DNA of 64,000 nucleotides from an uncultured Verrucomicrobiae bacterium (GCA_963764165.1 CAVXRD010000002.1:768001-832000), one strand, 5' to 3'. Counted from the stretch's first letter, positions 1 through 11,983 are shown. The notes: generated from the letters alone by a model not told the origin. Translations and numbers: made by a program.

Positions 1-1
1 G

Positions 2-406
2 GCGGACGCGACCTCAGCAAATAACGGCTGGGATCAAGCCATCGGAATCGCTCAAGACGTGGTCCGGGCCACTGGACTTTTTGACCTTCTCGGTGGCCTA
101 GGCATAGGAGCTCTTCCGAAGCCCTGTAACCTTCACCGTCCCTATATTCGGCAAGGGGTTATGGACGACGTAAAAGCTCGTGCGCCGCGAGCCCCAGATG
201 GCCGGTTTATTGATCCGAATACGCTGCAACCGACCGATGATCCTGTATTGGGTCACAAACCTGGATATGAGTTTTGGCGGTTGAAGGCAGCAGCAGAGGC
301 GGAAAATGTTTCCCAACAGATGTTTAATGAGACGCTAAACAATCCCGAATTTTACCAGATTGAAGACAAAGCGGTCAATGCAAGCCACCAATATGAACAA
401 CCGTAA
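2..406 (+). CDS. C-terminal toxin domain of a polymorphic (probably Rhs) toxin, GH-E family HNH/EndoVII nuclease; 5' end outside window
   Basis: Frame open from the window edge. Motifs LGHKPGYEF...NNPEFYQIEDKAVNASHQYE match the GH-E pattern. Overlaps a downstream immunity-type gene. Confidence 0.8.
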   Translation, partial: ADATSANNGWDQAIGIAQDVVRATGLFDLLGGLGIGALPKPCNLHRPYIRQGVMDDVKARAPRAPDGRFIDPNTLQPTDDPVLGHKPGYEFWRLKAAAEAENVSQQMFNETLNNPEFYQIEDKAVNASHQYEQP

Positions 407-902
407 ATCACAACATGAATTTCAAACTAACCATAATCTTCTCGCAGCCGTCGAAAAGAACGACATTCCAACAGTGCGACAACTGCTTGAAGCTGGCTAC
501 GACGCAAACGAGAGAGATCGGGGGATGAGCACGCCTCTCATGAGAGCTGCCTTTCACGGATACAGTGACCTATTAACATTATTGCTTGGCTTTGGAGCAG
601 ACGCGAATTTGGTAGACAAACTGGGCAAGACAGCCCTGCACTACGCGGCTCAGGAACAACACGAAACCGCAACCAAGATCCTTCTGGATGGCGGTGCCCC
701 GCTAAACGCTCAAGACAATTACGGCAATGCCCCTCTGCACAACGCAGTTTATTATTCGCTCGGTCGCGGAGCAACAATTAGATTGCTCCGTGAGCGTGGT
801 GCTAATGAAAACCTACAAAATGGCAGCGGCGTTACCCCGCTTGACCTTGCCAAAACGATCGCCAATTACGACGTGCTTCAGCATTTTGGTAACAAGAAGT
901 AA
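393..902 (+). CDS. Ankyrin-repeat protein, putative cognate immunity protein
   Basis: Ankyrin repeats (TPLMRAA, GKTALHYAA, GNAPLHNAV, GVTPLDLA). ATG 393 overlaps the toxin 3' end. Confidence 0.85.
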   Translation: MNNRKSQHEFQTNHNLLAAVEKNDIPTVRQLLEAGYDANERDRGMSTPLMRAAFHGYSDLLTLLLGFGADANLVDKLGKTALHYAAQEQHETATKILLDGGAPLNAQDNYGNAPLHNAVYYSLGRGATIRLLRERGANENLQNGSGVTPLDLAKTIANYDVLQHFGNKK

Positions 903-907
903 TAAGT

Positions 908-1288
908 GAACTGTACGAGCCAACCATAGCACGCGAGGTGCCATGAAAATGAACGCTGGCGCAGCATCCTCCTTCGCCAAGGCTGCGGCGGGACAAGTCT
1001 CGGCTGCGAAACACATCTGCGATTGCATGAAAGCTCACCTACGTCAGACTGAACACCCAAACCCCTTGCCCCCTCGTGGCGCTGTCTCGGTTAACCATGG
1101 GCTTTTCACTCTCGGTGCCCGGATTGTCTTCGGTAATGGATACGACTGCCCCAGCTATGTCGAACAACATCGTGCCGGATTGCAATGCGCGGCGCAACTG
1201 ATAAGCTTTTCGCCGCATGATTTGGCGCGTCATCATGTTCTGGTTATTGGCGGCATTTTCCGCCGTGGCCGATTTGCCGCGTCACTCC
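908..1288 (+). repeat. Inter-cassette direct repeat, copy 1 (leader plus signal-peptide segment)
   Basis: Begins GAACTGTACGAGCCAACC, ends in codons for MIWRVIMFWLLAAFSAVADLPRHS. Homologous to 4352, 5232 and 7654. Confidence 0.95.
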
Positions 1289-3712
1289 TCTCTTGGCTCT
1301 CTTCAAGTCGAGCAGTTCGCCTATAACGGGTTGGATGAACTGAACCTTCTCGCGGATGGCAACAGCCACACCACCTCGTGGGCATTTAATCAATACGGCT
1401 GGCGCATAGGAAAGACAAATGCCACCGGGACAAACATCATCAATTACACTCGCGATGCCAATGGCCGGGTGACAAATCGTTGGATGATGGGCACCAACAC
1501 CGGTTACAAGCTGGACGCGGTTGGCAACGTCACCAACATCGTCTATCCCGCCACCAACATTGCGATCGGGTATGACGCCGTCAACCGGCCAACCAACATG
1601 ATGGACATTTCGGGCACGGCTTCGTTTACCTGGACGCCGACCAGCCACTTAGCCAGCGAAACGGGGCTGTGGGCCAGCGATACCACCAGCTACGGATACA
1701 GCCAGGGCCACCGCACCAACCTGAACCTTTCCCAACCCTCCGGCTCATGGAACCAAACTTATCTCTACGACGCCGCCTGGCGCATGACTGGGATTGGTTC
1801 GCCCGCTGGAAGTTTCACATATCAATACGCTAGCGGGGCCAATCAATACAGGGTTGGCGGCATTCTTCTTCCCAACGGCGCGAGCATCGTCAACCAGTAT
1901 GACAACCTGAGCCGGCTGACCAACACGGCACTCCTCGATCATTGGGGCCATGTGCTGGATGGTTACGTTTATGGCTTGGACGCCCTCGGGCAAAAGACGA
2001 ACCTTACCCGCCAGCTTGGGCTATCTACAAACAATGTGGCGGCGGGTTACGACGCCATCGGCCAAATAACGAATTGGGCGGGAAAGGAAGCTGGCGGCGC
2101 GAATCGCCAGAACGAGCAGATGGCCTACGGTTACGATCTGGCCGACAACCTGATTTCCCGCACCAACAACGCGCTGGTGCAAACGTTCACGGTGGATTCG
2201 TTGAATCAGTTAAACAACGTGTCTCGCAGCGGCACCTTCACCGTGAGCGGCGCATTGCCTGCTCCACCCGCCAGCGTCACGGTCAACGGAGCCGCCGCGC
2301 AAACCAACGGAGACTTCACCTTTGCCGCGACCAACAACACGCTGGCCAATGGCAATAACACCTTCACCATCATTGCCGAAAATATTTATGGCACCAATGT
2401 GACCAACGTTCTCTCGGTGAATCTGCCCGCCACCGTCACATTTCAATACGACGCCAACGGAAATTTAACTAGCGACGGAACAAGAACATTCCAATACGAC
2501 GCGGAAAACCAACTGACCAACGTCAATGTGAGCGGCCAATGGCAGGTTGGCTACGTATATGACGGCTTGGGGCGTCGGCGCATCCGCCGGGCTTACGCGT
2601 GGCAAAGCGGCTGGTCGCTCACCAACGAAACCCGCTACATTTACGACGGCCCCTTGGTCATTCAGGAGCGCGACACTAACAATAACATCCTAGTCACTTA
2701 CACTCGCGGACTGGACTTGAGCGGCAGCTTGTTTGGGGCGGGAGGGATCGGGGGATTGCTGGCCCGCACCGACACGAATGGCACGCTGTATTATCACTGC
2801 GATGGCGGTGGAAACATCACCGCGTTGATGGACGAATACCAGAGGATCGTCGCCCGCTACGAGTATGATGCCTACGGGCGGCTGATCGGCATGTGGGGTT
2901 CGCTGGCCTCAGCCAACACCTATCGCTTTTCGAGCAAGGAATACGACGCGCTGTCGGGCCTCTACTACTACGGACACCGCTATTACGACCCCGCGCTGCA
3001 AAGGTGGCCAAATCCCGACCCGATTGGAGAGGCGGGAGGGATTAATCTTTACCGAGCTATGAGAAATAATCCAATGCGGTGGGTTGATCCGTTTGGATTG
3101 GACAACATGTACAACATGGCTGCTGGTAACAACGCCCCTCCTTCAATGGTCGTTTCGGCCAATCCATCTCTCGGCGAAGCACCTACGGTGACCTATCAAG
3201 GAAGTCAAGGGGATCTTTTCCTGATAGGTGAATTTAGCACGGCTGCCGGAACCGTGGCCGCAGCCTCTATCATGGGGCTTATCGCGGGCGGCGTTCCACC
3301 AGACCAAGCCATTATGCTTGTAGAGCAAGCGTATGAAAAACTAGTTAACAATGCGTCCCCGCAGCCATCTCAGAACAATTGCCCTAATAATACTTCGCCG
3401 ATTAAAACCCCGCTAATGGGAATGGCGAAACCTAACAATGGTGGAGGGCCACCACATGGAGGGAGTCTTCATGATCAAATGATAAACGATTTTATTGACA
3501 ACCTTCCGGACGAGGCGGATAATATCAGGAAAAATCAGCAGCAAGTGGACTTTTTCGGTAATCCCGTCGGCAACAATAGGCCGGACGTTCAATATGATTT
3601 GGATGGCGTGCATTATAACATCGAATTCGATATGAATTGGATGAAAAGCATTACGCATTTTGATGAAATATTTGAGAATGACTCGGTAAGTTCAATCGAA
3701 ATCCACTTTTAA
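1217..3712 (+). CDS. Rhs/YD-repeat toxin (N-truncated core with signal peptide), C-terminal putative PD-(D/E)xK-like nuclease
   Basis: YD repeats; Rhs core end PDPIGEAGGINLY...NNPMRWVDPFGL; CT from about 3101 with NQQQVD...NRPDVQY...NIEFD. Confidence 0.9.
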   Translation: MIWRVIMFWLLAAFSAVADLPRHSSLGSLQVEQFAYNGLDELNLLADGNSHTTSWAFNQYGWRIGKTNATGTNIINYTRDANGRVTNRWMMGTNTGYKLDAVGNVTNIVYPATNIAIGYDAVNRPTNMMDISGTASFTWTPTSHLASETGLWASDTTSYGYSQGHRTNLNLSQPSGSWNQTYLYDAAWRMTGIGSPAGSFTYQYASGANQYRVGGILLPNGASIVNQYDNLSRLTNTALLDHWGHVLDGYVYGLDALGQKTNLTRQLGLSTNNVAAGYDAIGQITNWAGKEAGGANRQNEQMAYGYDLADNLISRTNNALVQTFTVDSLNQLNNVSRSGTFTVSGALPAPPASVTVNGAAAQTNGDFTFAATNNTLANGNNTFTIIAENIYGTNVTNVLSVNLPATVTFQYDANGNLTSDGTRTFQYDAENQLTNVNVSGQWQVGYVYDGLGRRRIRRAYAWQSGWSLTNETRYIYDGPLVIQERDTNNNILVTYTRGLDLSGSLFGAGGIGGLLARTDTNGTLYYHCDGGGNITALMDEYQRIVARYEYDAYGRLIGMWGSLASANTYRFSSKEYDALSGLYYYGHRYYDPALQRWPNPDPIGEAGGINLYRAMRNNPMRWVDPFGLDNMYNMAAGNNAPPSMVVSANPSLGEAPTVTYQGSQGDLFLIGEFSTAAGTVAAASIMGLIAGGVPPDQAIMLVEQAYEKLVNNASPQPSQNNCPNNTSPIKTPLMGMAKPNNGGGPPHGGSLHDQMINDFIDNLPDEADNIRKNQQQVDFFGNPVGNNRPDVQYDLDGVHYNIEFDMNWMKSITHFDEIFENDSVSSIEIHF

Positions 3713-3722
3713 AGAGGTAAAT

Positions 3723-4343
3723 ATGTTTAACGGCTTTGAGGCTATACCAATTAATTGTCTTTGGGCAGAACCAGATAGCCTGATGGAATTTATTAGAGTA
3801 ATGAAATTAGAGAGTGGCTCTGAATGGAGCTTTGAGAAAAAGCCTTTAGATTTAAATAGTATCTACATTTCAGCTCCGCCTAAAGGCGGCGCGCACCTAC
3901 CGCGCTTTGCGGTTTGGCAGCCTAGCTGCATGTCGTTCGGCTCCGTTTTGATTGCTAATCACGAAGACGGACTTATTCAAACGATGCGGCATCTAAACAA
4001 AAGGCACGCAATTCCGTACTTTTCTGCCTTTCTCTCCCGCAATCATAGAAAGCAAGGCTTCTGCTATTTCGAGTATAGGGGCGAATCTCGGTCAGACCGG
4101 GTGGTATACGTCATACGCGACCCGAGATGGAAGTTCTTCGAAAAGGGCGGGAGGCTACCTTTTGAAAATCCTGAACGCTATGGGGCGAAGCGGATCGCAG
4201 ATCGCCTTACACCGTCCATTTTGGTCGAATATTTGAAGTCGCTCCATTGGAATCTCGAATCAGAAGATTTTTGGAAAAGCAAAAAGGACGCTTGGCTTGG
4301 ACGACGACTAAGCTTTAAAAGAGGACCGGTCGACATCCCATAA
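3723..4343 (+). CDS. Putative immunity protein for the 1217 toxin
   Basis: 10 nt after the toxin stop with a GAGG RBS; AT-richer; motif RWKFFEKG..LPFENPERY..KRIADRL resembles toxin-adjacent immunity proteins. Confidence 0.7.
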   Translation: MFNGFEAIPINCLWAEPDSLMEFIRVMKLESGSEWSFEKKPLDLNSIYISAPPKGGAHLPRFAVWQPSCMSFGSVLIANHEDGLIQTMRHLNKRHAIPYFSAFLSRNHRKQGFCYFEYRGESRSDRVVYVIRDPRWKFFEKGGRLPFENPERYGAKRIADRLTPSILVEYLKSLHWNLESEDFWKSKKDAWLGRRLSFKRGPVDIP

Positions 4344-4351
4344 AATAAACG

Positions 4352-4769
4352 GAACTGTACGAGCCAACCATAGCACGCGGGGTGCCATGAAAACGAACGC
4401 TGGCGCAGCATCCTCCTTCGCCAAGGCTACGGCGGGACAAGTCTCGGCTACGAAACACATCCCCAATTGGATGAAAGCTCGCCTACATCAAACTGAACAC
4501 CCAACCCGCCGTCGCTGCGCTATGGCGCGGCAAGACGCCTGCCCACCTCGTGGCGCTGGTTCCCTCGCCAAAGCTTTAGCGGCGGCGGGTGCCGGTCAAC
4601 CAAGGGCATTGTCGGAGGTTTTTCACTCTCGGTGCCCGGATCCTCTTCGGTAATGGATGCGACTGCTCCAGCTATGTCCGTAAGCATCATGCTGGATTGC
4701 AATGCGCGGTGCACCCGCTAAACTCAACTCCGCATGATATGGCGCGTCATTTTCTGCTGGCTGCTGGCG
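4352..4769 (+). repeat. Inter-cassette direct repeat, copy 2
   Basis: Near-identical to copy 4 over the first ~270 bp. Contains all three mini-elements. Confidence 0.95.
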
Positions 4770-4823
4770 CTGCATTCGCAGCGCGCCTTTGCGGGCGCAT
4801 GCACGGAAAGGGGTCGCACATAA
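4734..4823 (+). pseudogene. Leader-encoded signal-peptide ORF with no Rhs fused (29 aa)
   Basis: MIWRVIFCWLLALHSQRAFAGACTERGRT* read directly from the sequence. Confidence 0.55.
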
Positions 4824-4926
4824 CCACATATTTTGCGATTGACTGATCGAGAATGCAGCCGCAGCCTGCCATTCGCATAGCCGAGGATCACGCAATATGC
4901 TATTAAGTGGAACTGCCCCCTTTCTT

Positions 4927-5223
4927 ATGAATAATAGAAAAGAAGAGGTATTAGTGGCACTTCAGCAAGCGCTACTGGGCGAGGTTAGTGCTCGCTTGCG
5001 GGCGGTCACGGTTACTTACAACGAGACAAGCGTGCACTTTGATTGTTATTACGATGGAGAAATTGCCGAGGACGACCTGGAGTCAATGTCATGTGTGGAA
5101 GGTGAACTAATTGCTTGGTTTCCAGAAACCCATAAGGTTACATATCAGGTACATCGAAAAGATTATCCGACTTTGGTTCCTAAGGACAAAGTGTGCGCGT
5201 TTTATCGAAAGGAGCCTCTTTAA
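4927..5223 (+). CDS. Small acidic protein, putative orphan immunity protein
   Basis: Sits alone between repeat copies 2 and 3 in the immunity position (stop just before the repeat). No toxin upstream. Alternative start 4897. Confidence 0.65.
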   Translation: MNNRKEEVLVALQQALLGEVSARLRAVTVTYNETSVHFDCYYDGEIAEDDLESMSCVEGELIAWFPETHKVTYQVHRKDYPTLVPKDKVCAFYRKEPL

Positions 5224-5231
5224 GTGAATTT

Positions 5232-5571
5232 GAACTGTACGAGCCAACCATGGCACGCGAGGTGCCAAGGAAAAACGATTTGGCGCATGGAACAGCTTGT
5301 CGGCTACGAAACATATCCGGAATTGGATGAAAGCTCGCCCACCGCGTAGTGTTGTCCCGGTCAACCAGAGGCACCGTCGGAGGTTTTTTCACTCTCGGTG
5401 CCCGGATGGTCTTCGGTAATGGATGCGACTGCTCCAGCTATGTCGACCGACATCATGCCGGATTGCAATGCGCGGCGCAACTGTTAAACTTCTCACCGCA
5501 TGATTTGGCGCGTCATTTTCTGCTGGCTGCTGGCGACAACGTTCGCCCATGCCAGCCTTCCGCGCCATTCT
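5232..5571 (+). repeat. Inter-cassette direct repeat, copy 3 (shortest, no mini-elements)
   Basis: Same start motif and same 3' core. Ends in codons for MIWRVIFCWLLATTFAHASLPRHS. Confidence 0.95.
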
Positions 5572-7329
5572 GCCATGGGCTTGCGCACGAACATGACCCG
5601 GCAATTGGGCATGGCCATCAACAGCATCGCCATTGGTTACGACGGGATTTCTGAAGTGACCAGTTGGATCGGAAAGGAGACCACCGGACAGCCGCGCTGG
5701 AACGAACAGATCCATTACAGCTACGACGCGGCGGGAAACATGCTCTATCGAAGCAACAACTGGACTGTCCTTTCGATTGGCTCCTACAACAACATTAATG
5801 AGCCGAGCGATTATGTCACTTCCGGTTCATTTACCGCCGTCGGTTCCCTGAGCGCGCCCGCCACCAACGTCACCATCAACGGCTACGCCGCCGAGGTCTA
5901 CTCCGACCTGACCTTCGCGAATACGAATATTGCCATTGATTATTACCAGACCGGTTATTTCACCAACGTCGCCCAAAACATCTACGGACTCAAAACGACC
6001 AACCAATACGCCGTCACTTGGATCAATCCATTTGATTACAATCCAGACGGCTCGACGGACGGCGCCTCGTCGATTTATTTCACCTATGATGAGTTTGGCC
6101 ATGTGGCCGACATCTCCTATGGGGACGCATCCGGCTACCACTACGCGCAATTGACCTGGGATGGCCTGGGCCGGTGCCGCAGTGTGCAGTATTATACCTT
6201 GACCAACGATTCCACTGGCAACTGGTGGGTGGGGCCGTTCAATCAAGTCCGGTATATTTACGACGGAATGGCCGTGGTGCAGGAGCGGGATTCCAACAAC
6301 ACGCCGCTGGTCACCTATACCCGCGGATTGGACATGAGCGGGAGCCTGCAAGGAGCTGGAGGAATAGGCGGATTGCTGGCCCGCACCGACAGCAACGGCC
6401 CGGCTTTCGATCACGCTGATGGGAACGGCAATGTCACCGCCCTCATGGACAGCTACCAGCGCATCGCGGCGCGATATGAATATGACCCGTATGGAAGGCT
6501 GCTGGGCAAATGGGGCCGATTGGCAGATGCCAACACCTACCGGTTTTCGAGCAAGCAATATTTCCAGGCCTTCGGCATGTATAACTTTGACTGCCGCTTT
6601 TACATGCCAGAAATGGCTCGCTGGCCAAATCCAGACCCGATTGGAGAAGCAGGCGGGATTAACCTTTATGGGTTTGTTGGGAACAATCCCGTCAACTTTG
6701 TCGATACTTTTGGCTTAACTACTTATTACCGAGAAACTCCATTCAACCAAGATCAAGCCGGCTCGTATGGGCCATACTCCTTTACTGTCGACGACGGCTC
6801 CGACAACGCAGAATATTCAAGTTGGACCACTGACCCTGAGTTTTTCGGTAACGATGCGATGGAGACGCAGGACGGGATGCTCATGGCTATGGTTGCACCT
6901 ATAGCCGACCCTGTCGGAATGGCCTTTGGCGCGGCCTTTGAATTTCTTTCGAAACCTATCGCGGACGCCCTCGAGTCCCTCGGTTTGCGAAAGCCTCCCA
7001 TTCCAAAAACGCCTAAAGCGTCTCCGTGTCCGGTATCAATTAAACCTGAGCCCAAGATCACCCTTTATCGTCAGGGAAATCCTAACACCGTTTATTCCCC
7101 CACCAGAGCTACATCGTTAAGCAAGAGCCCCGACCTGATGCATTACGATCCGAAAGGCCAGCTTTTGCAATTTGAAATTCCTCAAAGCGTTTACAATCAG
7201 TGGATGAAGGATGGTCTAATTGATACCTACAGCGACCTTCACGCACTCTCAGGAATAATCACATCAGAAGTGAAAGTTTTGCCACCAGCATCTGGACAAC
7301 TGAATCAATATCAAGTTAAACCTCAATGA
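5500..7329 (+). CDS. Rhs toxin (more strongly truncated core with signal peptide), C-terminal putative ADP-ribosyltransferase-like domain
   Basis: Rhs core end PDPIGEAGGINLYGFVGNNPVNFVDTFGL; CT from about 6718 with TLYR...TSLS...SEVKV. Confidence 0.88.
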   Translation: MIWRVIFCWLLATTFAHASLPRHSAMGLRTNMTRQLGMAINSIAIGYDGISEVTSWIGKETTGQPRWNEQIHYSYDAAGNMLYRSNNWTVLSIGSYNNINEPSDYVTSGSFTAVGSLSAPATNVTINGYAAEVYSDLTFANTNIAIDYYQTGYFTNVAQNIYGLKTTNQYAVTWINPFDYNPDGSTDGASSIYFTYDEFGHVADISYGDASGYHYAQLTWDGLGRCRSVQYYTLTNDSTGNWWVGPFNQVRYIYDGMAVVQERDSNNTPLVTYTRGLDMSGSLQGAGGIGGLLARTDSNGPAFDHADGNGNVTALMDSYQRIAARYEYDPYGRLLGKWGRLADANTYRFSSKQYFQAFGMYNFDCRFYMPEMARWPNPDPIGEAGGINLYGFVGNNPVNFVDTFGLTTYYRETPFNQDQAGSYGPYSFTVDDGSDNAEYSSWTTDPEFFGNDAMETQDGMLMAMVAPIADPVGMAFGAAFEFLSKPIADALESLGLRKPPIPKTPKASPCPVSIKPEPKITLYRQGNPNTVYSPTRATSLSKSPDLMHYDPKGQLLQFEIPQSVYNQWMKDGLIDTYSDLHALSGIITSEVKVLPPASGQLNQYQVKPQ

Positions 7330-7655
7330 TGAGCGTATTCAAAAGCAAAGACATATTCTGCTGTGCTGGTTTCAAAAATCGGATTGAGGCCGCTGGCGGG
7401 CGCGGAATTGCGATTCTAGCGAATCAAACTGCAACTGGAGTTATATTTCTACTGCAGTCGCGTGGAATTGCGTTCGAAGATGTAAAAAGAATTGAACCAA
7501 ATTCCGATTTGCCAGACATTACGATAAACGTTTCCTACGAGGTAGGACTTCAATACTGTCCATGGTGCGGTCGTCAACTTCAAGAGCTAGTTGATGCTTC
7601 GCCAGCGGCCTTCGAGCAGCTCGCGAACAACAATAGATGCTTTTTGATGAAGTGA
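7326..7655 (+). CDS. Putative immunity protein, Cys-motif (CC...CPWCG)
   Basis: ATGA overlap with the toxin stop. FCCAGF and YCPWCG suggest zinc binding. Confidence 0.72.
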   Translation: MMSVFKSKDIFCCAGFKNRIEAAGGRGIAILANQTATGVIFLLQSRGIAFEDVKRIEPNSDLPDITINVSYEVGLQYCPWCGRQLQELVDASPAAFEQLANNNRCFLMK

Positions 7656-8091
7656 ACTGTACGAGCCAACCATAGCACGCGGGGTGCCATGAAAACGAAC
7701 GCTGGCGCAGCATGCTCCTTCGCCAAGGCTACGGCGGGACAAGTCTCGGCTACGAAACACATCCCCAATTGGATGAAAGCTCGCCTACATCAAACTGAAC
7801 ACCCAACCCGCCGTCGCTGCGCTATGGCGCGGCAAGACGCCTGCCCACCTCGTGGCGCTGGTTCCCTCGCCAAAGCTTTAGCGGCGGCGGGTGCCGGTCA
7901 ACCAAGGGCATTGTCGGAGGTTCTTTCACTCTCAACGCCCGGATCGTCTTCGGTAATGGATGCGACTACTCCAGCTATGTCGACCGACATCATGCCGGAT
8001 TGCAATGCGCGGAGCAACTGATAAGCTTCCCGCCGCATGATTTGGCGCGTCATTTTCTGCTGGCTGCTGGCGACAACGTTCCACGCCATTC
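7654..8091 (+). repeat. Inter-cassette direct repeat, copy 4 (terminal, empty)
   Basis: Overlaps the immunity stop codon. Leader ORF 8037-8210 runs into unrelated sequence. Confidence 0.95.
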
Positions 8092-8161
8092 CGCATTCGC
8101 AAGATTCTCCTCCCTTGACCGATTCAACTCGGCAGCGTGAAGGTCCAGCCCGAGAACCGCG

Positions 8162-8650
8162 TCAGACCAGTTCAAGCATATCGGCTTCCAATTTCACGGC
8201 GGCGGCCTGATTGATGAAATCCAGGCGCAAAATGACCGTGCTCATTCCGAGCCTTTTCTCCACCCAGCCTTCGATTCCCTGCAAGGGACCCGCTTTGATG
8301 CGGACCCTCTTGCCTTCTTCGATGGCCGGCGCCAGGGACACGCCGAGCTTGGCATCAAGGGCCAGCAGAATATCGCCCAATTGCCTGCTGAACGTTTCCT
8401 GGTCGAAGACGGTGAGCAGATTGGCAATATGATCGCTCTGCCGGACCGAGTCCGCCTGGGATCGCTCGCAGCGAATAAACACATAGCCTGGGAACAAGGG
8501 CTTCTCGAAGACCACCGTTTTCCCGCGGTATTTATGGGCGGACTCGAAGCACGGGAGCACTGCGGAAATGGAATTCCGCCTGCAAAACTCAGCAATCTTC
8601 TTTTCGCGGCGCGGCCGGGCGTGCGCAACGAACCAGTTCATTTCTGACAC
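8162..8650 (-). CDS. NusG-paralog transcription antiterminator (UpxY/RfaH-like)
   Basis: NGN domain WFVAHARPRREKK...PLFPGYVF plus KOW motif GKRVRIKAGPLQGIEG. Confidence 0.92.
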   Translation of the reverse strand: MSEMNWFVAHARPRREKKIAEFCRRNSISAVLPCFESAHKYRGKTVVFEKPLFPGYVFIRCERSQADSVRQSDHIANLLTVFDQETFSRQLGDILLALDAKLGVSLAPAIEEGKRVRIKAGPLQGIEGWVEKRLGMSTVILRLDFINQAAAVKLEADMLELV

Positions 8651-8747
8651 GATTCCAAAAAAGTACGAGGGTTGGGTAGAAAGTCAACGAGGCAATACCT
8701 TAATCGCGGGGAGCCGCGTCCAGAATTCGGCGATTTGCGAGGGTCTT

Positions 8748-8777
8748 ATAGGCCGAATAGGTCGCAGAGGACCCATA
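8748..8777. repeat. Short degenerate 9-bp tandem repeat
   Basis: ATAGGCCGA ATAGGTCGC AGAGGACCC ATA, intergenic. Confidence 0.45.
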
Positions 8778-8800
8778 CGATTGATTTTCCACAGGCCCGG

Positions 8801-11800
8801 TCATTTTCCCTGCAAAGCGCGCAGTTCGCGGGTCACGTTGGTAAATTCAACCGCGTCGGTTCTGGCGTAATCAAGGTACAGCTTGTCGTAGCGGATTTGC
8901 GCTTCCTTGTCGTGAGTTGCCTTGGCGACTTTGGCCAATCCGTCGTAGACGAGGGAGGAAGGAGCCGGCAGCTGCTTTTCCAAAACCAAAAAATCCTCGC
9001 GGGAGGCGTCGAAGCGGTGCAGTTCAAATTCGGAAATCGCCCGGTTTAGCCGCGCCGAGGTGTTTTTCGGGTCGCGTTCAAGAAGGCCGCCAAGCGTCGC
9101 GATGGCCGCCTGATAATCCTTCATGGTCATCTCGACCTCGGCCTTGCTGAGCGTCGCATCGCTGATCTCATCGGGTTCGGCGCCGGAGGCGTTCAAGATT
9201 TTCAATTGGTCGGCGGTTGCCTGAACCGCCTTGGCGAACCAGCGCGCCGCTTCCTTCTGAAATTCGCCCTTGCCGGGCGCCGATTTGATTTCCTCCCGCA
9301 GCATGAAATAGCCCATGCGCCGGTAGAACTCGGCCATCACGCCCAGGAACCTGGCATTGCCAGGATCTTTCGCGCGCTCATCTGTCAATAATTTTTCAGC
9401 GGCCGCGAAGTCCCTTTTCGTGGCATAGGCCAGCGCTTCCACGCGAATCAACTCGAGCGGGCTGCCGGTGAACCCGGCGCGCGCGCTGCCCAATAATTTC
9501 AACGCCGCGTCCGGCTGGTTCAAATCAATGTAGGTCTTGGCCAGGTTCAACTCGCCATCCGGATCTTTGGGCGAAAGCTCGAGGCAGCGCTGAAACATGT
9601 GGGCGGCCTGAATGGGAAGGTTGCGATAACCGAAAAACTCCCCGACCCGATTATTCAGGGCGGGCGTGTCTGGCGGGCCCATCAAGTTAAGCGCGTAATC
9701 CCACCGTTGAAATATTCGCGCTGAAAATTCCGTGACGCTGAGCGGCGGCTCAGAGTCTGGAATGCCACGCATTTGCAAGTTAAATTGCAGATTGGCCTTT
9801 GCCATGATGTTATCGGGGTTCAACCGCAGCGCTTCCTGGAATTGATCGGCGGCGTCCTTCAATAAAGAGCTTTTGTCCCCGTCCGAAATGCGAAGGCCCG
9901 CGGCCTCCTTTTGCAGTTCGGTTCCCCAGTAATCGAGGCATTGGGAGTAATAAGTTGCGATCAACCGAGCGTTGGCGTTTTTCTTCGCCACTTCCGGCAG
10001 CGGCCGGAGTGCATCCTTTTCCAAGGCGTGCCAAAAAGCCTGGTTTGTCCCAATATCCGCCCGAGACAGCAGCAGCGTGGCCAGGGCATTGGTGGGATCC
10101 GGCAACACAATCCCACCCATCCGATGCGGTGCCATGAAGACGCGTTCGAAACGATTGCCAAAACCGGGGTGCAAGTAATACACGGGCTCGCGGCCGGCGA
10201 GGTGCGCTAAAAAGTTGCCTACCGCCACGTCGCTGATCTCATCGCGCAAGTTTTCAGTGTCGCCAATCTCCTTCTTAAATGACGGATAATGCTCGGCCAG
10301 ATAGCGGACGTACTGGATGTAATTCAATTCGGGGCTCTCGACAAAGACGTAGTGCGACGGCAATCCGAGGCGTCGGCAGGCGTCCATCGCGAGGTAAAGC
10401 CGGGTGGAATCATCCGCCATGACAATCCCAGGTTTCGCCGGCAGCGTGCGGGCCAGTTCGTCCGCGAATTCCGAGACGATCGGTTTGTCAAATTCCCGGA
10501 TGTGCGCAAAATTGATGCACGCCAGCGCGACTGGCGCCGCGATCGCTCCAATCCACAGCGCCACTGCGGTCGTTAAGTTGCCATTCCGCAGCACTCCGCG
10601 CGGCTGGCCCCAATGATATGAAAGATCCTTGGCGAAAAAGAAAAAAACGTGGCCGAAAAAGTAGCCGACGCACAGCGCCGCCATATAATAGAAGCTCAGA
10701 TATGTTGGAGGGCCCAGCAACCCCGCGGAAAAACGCGCCCTGGGGCTTGGGCTGATTTCGATATCAAAAAACATCAACACGCTGATGACCAGAAACGCGA
10801 TGTGAAGGAGCCGAAACAGGAGGCGGGTGTAAACATCCGTAACGTTTCGAAATTCGATATTGAATGACGGCCAGCCAGTGAAGGCGAAGACCAGCGCAAT
10901 GACGCTCGGCAGCCCGGAAACGGCAAAATAGTAATGCGGAGTCCGATGGAGAAGATAGTGCTGCTGCCCCAGCCATTGGTGCATCAAATCCCAGAACTTT
11001 CCCTCATCGCGCATCGCGCCAAGCGCGGGATTCAGGATGTAGAGGCCAAGCCCCATCACCAGGCAAACGATCATGACGAGGAGGCATCGCCAATTCACGC
11101 TCCATGCGGTCCGAATCCACCCAAAAACCGCCCCCACCTTGGTCTTGAATGCCGCCAAGGTGGTGAACCAAATCGGCGTGTAGCCGCCGGTCGGCAGGGC
11201 CTCGAAATAGATCGGGCTCAACATGAACCAAGCCAGCCAGATAAGAAAAAAGGGCGCGTATCCGATCAGGCTCCAGTCATTGGCCAAGCCGACGCCGTAA
11301 ACGAATGAAAACGCAAACAGCCAATGGTTCTTTTTCGAAACGCGGAATTCCAGCAGGCATTCTATAAGAAAAGCAAAAATTAGAAGATCAACCATTTCGC
11401 CCGTGCCGGAAACCGCATTCTCCCAAAACGTGAGCTGCGCTCCAAGCAACACGACCGCCAGCCCGGCAGCCAGGAAAGATCCGCGCACCGCCACTTGAGT
11501 CCACTTCGCACTTTCCATCAACCGCAACTCTTTCGTCCGGTCCCGAAAAAGCAGCGTTTTGTTGTGGGAGATTACCGAGCCGAAATATGCGAACAACTGC
11601 CCGAACACCTTCTCCCGCTGCTCCGGCGTGCGGTCATGGGAAAGGAGGCGCACCGAACGGGCCAGAATCGCCAGGGTCAGCGACGCGCAAAGGGCCATGA
11701 ACAAGTTCAGCCCGATCACCTGCGCCCCGGCCGGCAGCCACCGGAACGGATACGTCAAGATGAAGCAAAGCGGCTGAAAATTGGGCGCCGCCCGCCAGAG

Positions 11801-11983
11801 CAAAGGGGCAGGATGCCAATTCCAACCGGTCACCTGCGCAATAAACGGGACGCTGCCAAAGGTCAAACCATGGTTCAGGGTCAGTGCGTAAAAGACAATC
11901 GCCACCAAAAAAACCAAGCCGGGTGCGAGGATGATTGGAGGCCTAACTACAGGCTCGTTGTTCTGCGACTCTTCTGCCGTCAT
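8801..11983 (-). CDS. DUF2723/TMEM260-like polytopic membrane protein with C-terminal TPRs (putative GT-C protein glycosyltransferase)
   Basis: Multiple TM helices starting FYALTL, LNLFMALCASLT, TFWENA; TPRs (ALRLNPDN, CLELSPKDP, LLERDPKN); GGGAG RBS. Confidence 0.72.
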   Translation of the reverse strand: MTAEESQNNEPVVRPPIILAPGLVFLVAIVFYALTLNHGLTFGSVPFIAQVTGWNWHPAPLLWRAAPNFQPLCFILTYPFRWLPAGAQVIGLNLFMALCASLTLAILARSVRLLSHDRTPEQREKVFGQLFAYFGSVISHNKTLLFRDRTKELRLMESAKWTQVAVRGSFLAAGLAVVLLGAQLTFWENAVSGTGEMVDLLIFAFLIECLLEFRVSKKNHWLFAFSFVYGVGLANDWSLIGYAPFFLIWLAWFMLSPIYFEALPTGGYTPIWFTTLAAFKTKVGAVFGWIRTAWSVNWRCLLVMIVCLVMGLGLYILNPALGAMRDEGKFWDLMHQWLGQQHYLLHRTPHYYFAVSGLPSVIALVFAFTGWPSFNIEFRNVTDVYTRLLFRLLHIAFLVISVLMFFDIEISPSPRARFSAGLLGPPTYLSFYYMAALCVGYFFGHVFFFFAKDLSYHWGQPRGVLRNGNLTTAVALWIGAIAAPVALACINFAHIREFDKPIVSEFADELARTLPAKPGIVMADDSTRLYLAMDACRRLGLPSHYVFVESPELNYIQYVRYLAEHYPSFKKEIGDTENLRDEISDVAVGNFLAHLAGREPVYYLHPGFGNRFERVFMAPHRMGGIVLPDPTNALATLLLSRADIGTNQAFWHALEKDALRPLPEVAKKNANARLIATYYSQCLDYWGTELQKEAAGLRISDGDKSSLLKDAADQFQEALRLNPDNIMAKANLQFNLQMRGIPDSEPPLSVTEFSARIFQRWDYALNLMGPPDTPALNNRVGEFFGYRNLPIQAAHMFQRCLELSPKDPDGELNLAKTYIDLNQPDAALKLLGSARAGFTGSPLELIRVEALAYATKRDFAAAEKLLTDERAKDPGNARFLGVMAEFYRRMGYFMLREEIKSAPGKGEFQKEAARWFAKAVQATADQLKILNASGAEPDEISDATLSKAEVEMTMKDYQAAIATLGGLLERDPKNTSARLNRAISEFELHRFDASREDFLVLEKQLPAPSSLVYDGLAKVAKATHDKEAQIRYDKLYLDYARTDAVEFTNVTRELRALQGK

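Follow-up and report, generated by a model that had tools for sequence, protein, structure and literature searches.

A candidate structured small-RNA element at the module ends of a main-plus-orphan Rhs array in Verrucomicrobiota

Bacterial loci for Rhs and other polymorphic toxins serve as models of how weapons are diversified and antidotes are collected. In one such locus, from an uncultured Verrucomicrobiae bacterium, repeats punctuate a row of toxin and predicted immunity genes, and the question that they raise is what these boundary sequences are and what they do for the modules that they separate. The window analyzed is a stretch of 64,000 nucleotides (nt; GCA_963764165.1, CAVXRD010000002.1:768001-832000), which is C2:768001-832000 in a source genome of 7.0 Mb and 5 contigs; positions given without a contig are counted from its first letter. 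With moderate confidence, we read the locus as a main-plus-orphan Rhs array in which each module is closed by an element, here called E, that is likely a structured small-RNA gene on the strand opposite to the Rhs genes.

The window opens inside a main Rhs gene, whose last 134 codons (2-406, plus strand) encode a GH-E HNH/EndoVII-type nuclease (PF14410, e-value 5.4e-17). A first-pass annotation of the window had suggested looking upstream for an Rhs gene of full length, and one is present there: an open reading frame (ORF) of 1,848 codons at C2:762860-768406, ending at window position 406. Its likely start is MKATKAK at C2:762923, and the start sequence, MKATKAKLASLILVIFAMLMGLHSQRAFA, reads like a Sec signal peptide. 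Behind it stands a gene for an ankyrin-repeat protein (414-902, plus strand; Ank_2, e-value 1.5e-37), predicted from its position to confer immunity to the GH-E toxin. Further along the plus strand lie two short Rhs genes. Short Rhs 1 (1217-3712, 831 aa) runs from the putative signal peptide MIWRVIMFWLLAAFSAVA through DLPRHS and the Rhs core to WVDPFGL and a C-terminal part of ~200 aa, and short Rhs 2 (5500-7329, 609 aa) from MIWRVIFCWLLATTFAHA through SLPRHSA and the core to FVDTFGL and a C-terminal part also of ~200 aa. Each is followed on the same strand by a predicted immunity gene, a 206-aa ORF (3723-4343) assigned by position only and a 109-aa ORF (7326-7655) whose start overlaps the stop codon of short Rhs 2 (ATGATGA). 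A lone 108-aa ORF (4897-5223, plus strand), possibly an orphan immunity gene, lies between the two groups. The small ORFs start 4-10 nt past each toxin stop or overlap that stop. Only the ankyrin protein among their products has a family match, and the immunity roles are read from position; the 206-, 108- and 109-aa ORFs and the two short-Rhs C-terminal ends match no family at an e-value of 0.01 or below. A toxin domain is recognized in the main gene alone.

Homology between these genes places them in a familiar arrangement. RHS repeats (PF05593) are found in the 831-aa ORF (e-value 1.1e-11) and in the 609-aa ORF (e-value 5.9e-06). Residues 30-629 of short Rhs 1 are collinear with residues 1008-1624 of the main protein at 55.6% amino acid identity, and residues 26-406 of short Rhs 2 with residues 1242-1623 at 76.2%; the DNA of short Rhs 2 and the main gene is 77.4% identical over 1,159 nt, with a longest exact match of 40 nt. 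The two short proteins share 50% identity over 390 aa, a similarity that reaches DPFGL/DTFGL and is lost beyond it. Rhs cores typically close with a conserved motif, PxxxxDPxGL, behind which a variable C-terminal toxin begins, and similarity ends here at the corresponding motifs, which are VVDPYGL in the main protein, WVDPFGL in Rhs 1 and FVDTFGL in Rhs 2. All features that define a main-plus-orphan Rhs array at the level of sequence are present, and the short Rhs genes are classic orphans by that standard. The first-pass annotation had the gene content right; it comprises the GH-E end and ankyrin gene, two RHS ORFs each with a small ORF, and the lone 108-aa ORF. Its contrast between this array and orphans that share core homology proved mistaken, and its description of the cargo as unrelated applies to the C-terminal toxin parts and the small ORFs and not to the Rhs ORFs as wholes.

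The four repeats, R1 to R4, share an 18-nt sequence, GAACTGTACGAGCCAACC, that occurs exactly four times in the window (908, 4352, 5232 and 7654), always on the plus strand and with 0 mismatches, where 0.04 occurrences are expected by chance. Repeat finding and a four-way alignment delimit units of 330-450 nt. They begin 0-9 nt past the preceding stop codons (TAA at 900-902, 4341-4343 and 5221-5223) or, at the fourth site, overlap the stop (TGA at 7653-7655), much as had been described at first. R2 and R4 are 94% identical over 419 nt; since they are not identical and have unique flanks, there is no sign of the assembly artefact that had been considered for this pair. The whole unit is confined to this array in the source genome, with sub-pieces of only 29-51 nt elsewhere. 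Searches of relatives split the repeat into two parts, a left element of ~245 nt, which is E, and a right stretch of ~90 nt that forms the start region of the next short Rhs gene.

E spans GAACT..GCCAACCATAGC to ..CCAGCTATGTC, and it is this stretch alone that relatives share: in other genera and families it is 74-87% identical, with unrelated sequence on both flanks. With a covariance model based on 14 copies, E is detected in 46 of the 151 genomes sampled for the same order (39 of 107 genera), and single genomes give as many as 10 matches; BLAST recovers it from 13 of 31 genomes within the family. A 26-nt degenerate motif of E matches 119 stretches in species-representative genomes; among the 80 of these listed by title, nearly all come from Verrucomicrobiota metagenome-assembled genomes. 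A few carriers are titled Bifidobacterium, Klebsiella, Chitinophaga or Alcaligenaceae, labels that look unreliable next to the other titles. Neighbouring copies are frequently spaced 1-6 kb from each other on the same strand, as in genomes G152, G163, G012, G065, G139 and G048.

Parts and possible relatives of E are also found. Its 45-nt end module occurs alone or in tandem (at locus L036, among short matches and near 238.8 kb on C4 of the source genome). At this last site (G000:C4:238772-238840) a lone end module lies directly past the stop codon of an ORF and before Rhs-repeat-coding sequence, and it resembles the decayed boundary of a module in a second Rhs locus of the same genome. At G028:C45:663-3756, an E copy that lacks the 3' third abuts an ORF reading like the N-terminus of a group II intron reverse transcriptase, and may have been interrupted by intron insertion. 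Another related-looking element (..GGCAACCAATAGCATGG..GGTGCCAG..) stands upstream of short Rhs starts of the MIWRVI.. type at G018:C1:~540990, G013:C47 and G010:C78, and may represent a sister family of E.

The evidence that E is structured comes from paired changes between copies. Across 53 distinct sequences, a consensus of 63 pairs is 89.3% paired, a percentage to be discounted to some extent, as the alignment used for the counts was fitted to a model of the same family and inflates it. Changes on both sides are seen in 43 of the 63 pairs. None of 500 shuffles reaches any of the observed pair measures, and in controls with partners slid by 1-3 columns pairing falls to 29-42% and 17-28 pairs change on both sides. 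In several helices full compensatory swaps can be followed by eye, for example from GCAUCC/GGAUGU to GCAGGC/GCCUGU and from GCUUC/GAAGC to CAUCC/GGAUG. These controls bear on the suggestion that the repeats have no role of their own and are left-over 5' regions of tandemly duplicated rhs operons, homogenized by gene conversion, with the apparent structure of E a by-product of relatedness. Related sequences can indeed beat shuffle controls, the E copies of one genome cluster together, and a chimeric stub after R2 (described below) suggests that a full-length Rhs gene with this leader once stood there. The slid controls, however, keep the relatedness of the sequences and still fall far short of the observed double changes; E is conserved across families and its flanks are not; and it also stands after housekeeping genes with no Rhs gene nearby. 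We therefore regard left-over leaders as a very unlikely explanation.

The fold also has a preferred strand. Alifold energies are -95.8 for the minus strand and -78.7 for the plus strand, and the alignment holds 389 G·U against 53 A·C cells when read on the minus strand, compared with 131 against 139 on the plus strand. The stronger fold and the excess of G·U pairs point to the strand opposite the Rhs genes as the favoured one. A plus-strand role for E as the cis-regulatory leader (5' untranslated region) of the following gene would suit the signal-peptide Rhs starts that lie 3-75 nt after E in the window, G017, G043 and G152. Such a role is hardly credible given that the plus-strand consensus fold is weaker with no surplus of G·U over A·C, that the downstream genes are unrelated in most copies and lacking after terminal ones, and that the plus-strand promoter motif lies past E, 9 nt before the ATG, which puts E outside that mRNA.

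A promoter-like motif for the opposite strand can be recognized next to E. In the RNA sense its conserved 5' end is ACAUAGCUGG, beyond which the flanks are unrelated in sequence. Even so, 24 of 38 non-redundant flanks have a TTG at -37, give or take 1 nt (background mean 2.0, maximum 5), and in 23 of the 24 a -10 hexamer whose second base is A follows after 16-18 nt. Fold, strand and promoter-like motif together suggest that E is likely an antisense small-RNA gene, on the minus strand relative to the Rhs genes, which would be transcribed convergently to the preceding immunity gene from a sigma-70-type promoter of its own. Our best guess is that the RNA has a role at the module boundary, either as a boundary or insulator that acts by convergent transcription or as a regulator tied to the promoter region that it shares with the next gene.

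Known RNAs and other kinds of sequence were also considered as candidates for E. Rfam 15 gives no match in window positions 1-9000 at an e-value of 1 or below. In five other E carriers, searched up to an e-value of 10, only chance-like hits to purD, ZFAT-AS1_3 and Betaproteobacteria-1 fall on or beside E (12-17 bits, e-values 5-10), far below gathering scores. Beside one E copy (L143, 740-822) an unrelated perfect palindrome of ~80 nt gives stronger but spurious hits to several microRNA models on both strands, likewise below gathering scores. E is not 6S RNA, as the 6S gene lies elsewhere in the source genome (C2:571436-571619), nor is it an essential housekeeping RNA, as the search detected none in 105 of the 151 genomes. 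A protein-coding repeat was rejected on the grounds that no frame stays open across relatives, owing to indels that include a T-run of varying length, and the ORFs at 943-1326 and 7689-8021 inside the repeats, which match no family, were rejected as genes. A closing stem CAUAGC/GCUAUG between the two ends of E was discarded as well, its changes being one-sided and without compensation.

All four copies in the window are assigned to the minus strand, and they differ in completeness. Copy 1 (R1, 904-1165; covariance model score 210.9 bits, e-value 5.4e-61) has lost ~13 nt of a long hairpin and carries one insertion resembling repetitive extragenic palindromic (REP) sequences. Copy 2 (R2, 4348-4682; 195 bits) has two insertions of 24-31 nt at loop positions. 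Copy 3 (R3, 5228-5448; 167 bits) lacks ~60 nt, including the 3' strand of helix 2, and may be defective for that reason. Copy 4 (R4, 7650-7985; 216.7 bits), which is terminal, is R2-like on its left and R3-like on its right. The insertions include a dispersed piece of ~25-45 nt (..CCTTCGCCAAGGCTACGGCGGGACAAG..) found at 961-1000 in R1, 4405-4444 in R2 and 7707-7746 in R4, and also at C5:55986, C2:1339034 and C1:183830 of the same genome; R2 and R4 contain a second insert as well. Inserts also occupy these two positions of E in a genome of the same genus (G004:C3), and the positions may be tolerated loop sites for a REP-like repeat.

What E adjoins was followed over several kilobases around 62 copies. 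A convergent gene always faces the 3' end of the putative RNA, at a gap of 30 nt or less in ~40% of the copies, and six ORFs stop at the TGA inside E's TGAACT, as does the 109-aa ORF of the window. Twenty-eight of the 62 copies lie beside RHS repeats or toxin/immunity families (GH-E, NucA/NucB with ComJ, Tox-REase-7, SUKH and DMP19). No fewer than 13 stand immediately behind housekeeping genes or others without a link to toxins, including purC, purF, ureG and genes of SCO1/CusF, xylose-isomerase-like, cNMP-binding, HEAT/cytochrome c and glucuronyl esterase types, so that E is not specific to toxin loci. Genome-wide scatter of the repeat away from toxin/immunity genes had been named as a refuting condition; in the source genome the whole unit occurs in this array only. 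The remaining copies follow small ORFs without a family match; several times, one or two of these ORFs fill the space between a housekeeping gene and the element. At G065:C18:265000-277000, L127 and L141, 1-3 small ORFs of this kind, each with a full or partial E, stand past glmM-like, phosphoglucomutase and FAD oxidase genes. These groups may be orphan-immunity islets marked by E.

On its promoter side, E is followed by genes that are mutually unrelated, and some copies are terminal, with nothing Rhs-like after them (R4 here, and copies in G012, G090 and G163). Terminal copies, copies behind unrelated genes and unrelated genes downstream together indicate that E belongs to the end of the preceding module and not to the start of the next.

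The same junctions could be read as insertion sites. E would then be a non-autonomous mobile element, either similar to a miniature inverted-repeat transposable element or RNA-mediated, that lands at the 3' ends of genes, and Rhs arrays would contain it incidentally, through its choice of insertion sites and through local duplication. Multiple copies (as many as 10 in one genome), sharp ends on both sides, clustering by genome, the existence of truncated copies and tight junctions with unrelated genes (a gap of 0 for purC and an overlap of -6 for ureG and the xylose-isomerase-like gene) are all in line with mobility, and in G004 (C2:1471260-1480499) a gene for an IS200-like Y1 transposase is found two ORFs upstream of one copy. 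Against this, the ends of E show neither terminal inverted repeats nor target-site duplications, no transposase is consistently near, and the source genome has E copies in this array only. The promoter-like motif, moreover, is kept at a fixed distance in flanks that differ within one genome, a pattern that fits old gene duplicates better than recent insertions. We consider a mobile element unlikely.

The ~90 nt of the right part of the repeat recur apart from E, at the starts of short Rhs genes that begin MIWRVI(L/M/F)..WLL...(D/S)LPRH. By eye, TTGCA(A/T/G), a spacer of 16 nt, a TAAnnT-like hexamer and a further 9 nt precede the ATG in all 12 short Rhs starts compared (the four copies in the window and eight from G004, G010, G013, G017, G018, G023 and G043). 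Eleven have TAA at -10 and one has a poor hexamer; the -10 hexamer is often preceded by TG. Before short Rhs 1, motif and position suggest a divergent, overlapping promoter region at 1166-1216, where the plus strand carries TTGCAA-16-TAAGCT 9 nt before the ATG and the minus strand TTGCGC-17-CACGAT facing E. Putative divergent promoters before short Rhs 2 (5452-5490) can be placed more closely. On the plus strand of R3, the -35 hexamer is at 5463-5468, TG at 5482-5483 and the -10 hexamer at 5485-5490, ahead of the ATG at 5500, and on the minus strand the -35 and -10 hexamers are at 5480-5475 and 5457-5452, so that the two motifs (5463-5490 and 5480-5452) overlap by 18 bp.

By inspection, the N-terminus that these starts encode resembles a Sec signal peptide: it shows a basic residue, a hydrophobic run and a site similar to AxA. 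The point of its in-frame fusion to the Rhs core varies, and the resulting ORFs measure 155 to 831 aa. If the motifs are active, the plus-strand promoter would yield a nearly leaderless mRNA of the next short Rhs gene, and each orphan module would have its own expression start and export signal. The E promoter and the short-Rhs promoter, overlapping back to back, would compete for one stretch of DNA. The idea in the first-pass annotation that the repeat provides an expression and export start thus finds support for the right ~90 nt, with its promoter-like sequence and Sec-type signal peptide across genera, and not for the bulk on the left, which is E and whose structure and promoter-like motif point to the opposite strand.

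How the modules might be rearranged can be read from traces within the array, and these lend support, by inference, to the earlier proposal that the repeats serve as recombination substrates. R4 is a mosaic: its left part equals R2 in 237 of 239 columns, and its right part equals R3 in 110 of 119, a region where R2 is only ~82% identical. After R2, a 29-codon stub (4734-4823, plus strand), MIWRVIFCWLLALHSQRAFAGACTERGRT, joins a signal-peptide start of the orphan type to an end of the main type, the second half, LHSQRAFAGACT, being 94.9% identical over 39 nt to C2:762979-763017. Probably a full-length Rhs gene with this leader stood after R2 and was then deleted, leaving the lone 108-aa ORF. 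A tree of E that leaves out R3 and ten further gappy rows groups the copies by genome in all seven genomes represented by two or more of them, which fits local duplication or gene conversion and not the import of each E with its module.

In the mechanism that we propose, the Rhs core upstream and E downstream would bracket each toxin/immunity pair with homology. RecA-type homologous recombination and gene conversion would then duplicate, delete and exchange modules with no need for a dedicated recombinase, and exchange would include DNA from divergent relatives that share E. The lack of a visible recombinase, reported from the start, extends well beyond the array: on contig C2 of the source genome the nearest tyrosine recombinase (PF00589) is at 864153, ~88 kb away, and scans of the ORFs next to E in other genomes (69 + 32 + 79 ORFs) revealed none.

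It is at this point that a role for E as DNA has to be weighed, namely as a folded single-strand recombination site of the attC kind at which an unlinked recombinase inserts and excises cassettes. The position of E directly past or overlapping the preceding stop codon, the ORFs that end at or beside its TGA and the arrays closed by a copy of E are what such a site would produce. Relative to the cassettes E folds better on the bottom strand, DNA also tolerates G·T pairs, and the 45-nt end module exists alone or in tandem. No recombinase lies beside any array examined, however, and the R4 breakpoint falls inside E and not at its edge. A folded site does not account for the TTG box, which keeps a fixed distance although the flanks are unconserved. 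Integron attC sites measure 57-141 nt and show little sequence conservation; E, which is ~245 nt long, has six or more helices and is ~80% identical in sequence between families, is unlike them. On balance a folded-DNA site appears improbable, and a small-RNA gene whose sequence also provides homology remains the reading that we prefer.

Several further points, added to the copies behind housekeeping genes, weigh against that reading. A generic scan for promoters picks up none of those proposed here for the window (6 sites, with 7.1 expected), and the window's own hexamers, TTGCGC and CATGAT, are weak. Past the conserved 3' end of E there is no clear intrinsic terminator, that is, a hairpin with a U-tract; terminator-like hairpins are instead found on the minus strand inside E (969-951, 4413-4395 and 7713-7699), ~45 nt before that end. 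The RNA may thus be ~45 nt shorter, which would leave the 45-nt end module, the most conserved part, without an explanation. In several copies, as judged by eye, the hairpin GAUCGCCUUCGGUC, written here as on the plus strand, has better pairing on that strand. Three of the four window copies are off-consensus (deletions in R1 and R3; two insertions each in R2 and R4), and not every one of them need be functional. Recombination, finally, is deduced from patterns in the sequence.

The array ends with a 57-codon stub (8037-8210, plus strand) that has the same signal-peptide start and no Rhs sequence, and that overlaps the 3' end of a convergent NusG-like gene. This NusG-paralogue gene (PF02357, 8162-8650, minus strand) follows the gene for a tetratricopeptide repeat (TPR) protein of 1,060 aa (8801-11983, minus strand) and converges on the end of the array. 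The TPR protein, used as a query, retrieved relatives or paralogues that are only 36-50% identical, and no syntenic locus in which module gain or loss could be compared.

If the preferred reading is correct, E represents a new and fairly large bacterial RNA class (~245 nt) with a clear genomic association, carried in an order of mostly uncultured soil and water Verrucomicrobiota. It would offer a simple account of the transfer of entire toxin/immunity modules between divergent species with no recombinase involved, and small ORFs ending at E would make it a marker in metagenomes for toxin/immunity cargo of new families. Orphan Rhs modules also appear able to carry an export signal of their own, which questions the view of orphans as silent spare parts. 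A bolder version goes further and is, in our judgement, rather unlikely. In that version, E would be a new structured RNA class active in toxin-cassette biology, with the module boundary a two-way switch between the RNA and toxin/immunity expression and with the RNA, or its gene in the form of single-stranded DNA, marking or guiding the joining of cassettes. Were E active in cassette joining, the result would be an integron-like cassette system built on an RNA gene in place of an integrase site.

Several known systems share features with this locus. Enterobacterial Rhs loci, as outlined in PMC3150448 and PMC3967940, consist of a main rhs gene with downstream orphan modules of rhs-CT and immunity genes, and arrays of polymorphic toxin cassettes, with ankyrin proteins listed among the immunity proteins, are surveyed in PMC3482391. 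The accepted route by which toxin and immunity genes are swapped, as these outlines give it, is recombination at the 3' tip of the full-length Rhs gene. The locus described here is like them in having a full Rhs gene followed by truncated pieces that share the core, diverge past DPxGL and are each succeeded by a small gene. Unlike the orphans in those outlines, the orphans here have their own promoter-like sequence, start codon and predicted Sec signal peptide, and unlike those loci the modules are closed by a structured non-coding element. The accepted view of Rhs diversification relies on one homology arm, the core; E would be a second, downstream arm.

The rAID arrays (recombinase-associated acquired interbacterial defence) in Bacteroidales, in the description in PMC12247911, have a linked tyrosine recombinase as their defining feature. 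On that description they resemble the present array in their co-oriented short genes with conserved intergenic sequence between them, the rAID genes being orphan immunity genes. They differ in that the array here has no linked recombinase, includes toxin parts as well, and has an intergenic element of ~245 nt that is folded and likely transcribed.

Multicopy small-RNA families, and genomic islands with tRNA or tmRNA genes as landmarks, offer a parallel in that E is multicopy, is conserved from its putative transcription start through its 3' end, has diverged flanks and stands at the border of variable DNA; unlike islands of the tRNA type, E has no integrase and no direct repeats of partial genes, and is not universal (46 of 151 genomes). 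With integrons the array shares a folded repeat directly past each cassette ORF, at times overlapping the stop codon, as well as unrelated cargo and a favoured fold strand complementary to the genes. It has neither an integrase nor an attI/Pc platform, each cassette brings its own promoter, and E is longer than attC, conserved in sequence, multi-helical and equipped with a promoter-like motif of its own. No earlier description of an element like E was found in the literature searched or in Rfam, and the supplements of candidate-RNA surveys might hold one. Set against these systems, the main-plus-orphan kind of Rhs locus is known, and what is new is E itself, its placement at module ends across an order, and orphans that have their own putative signal peptide.

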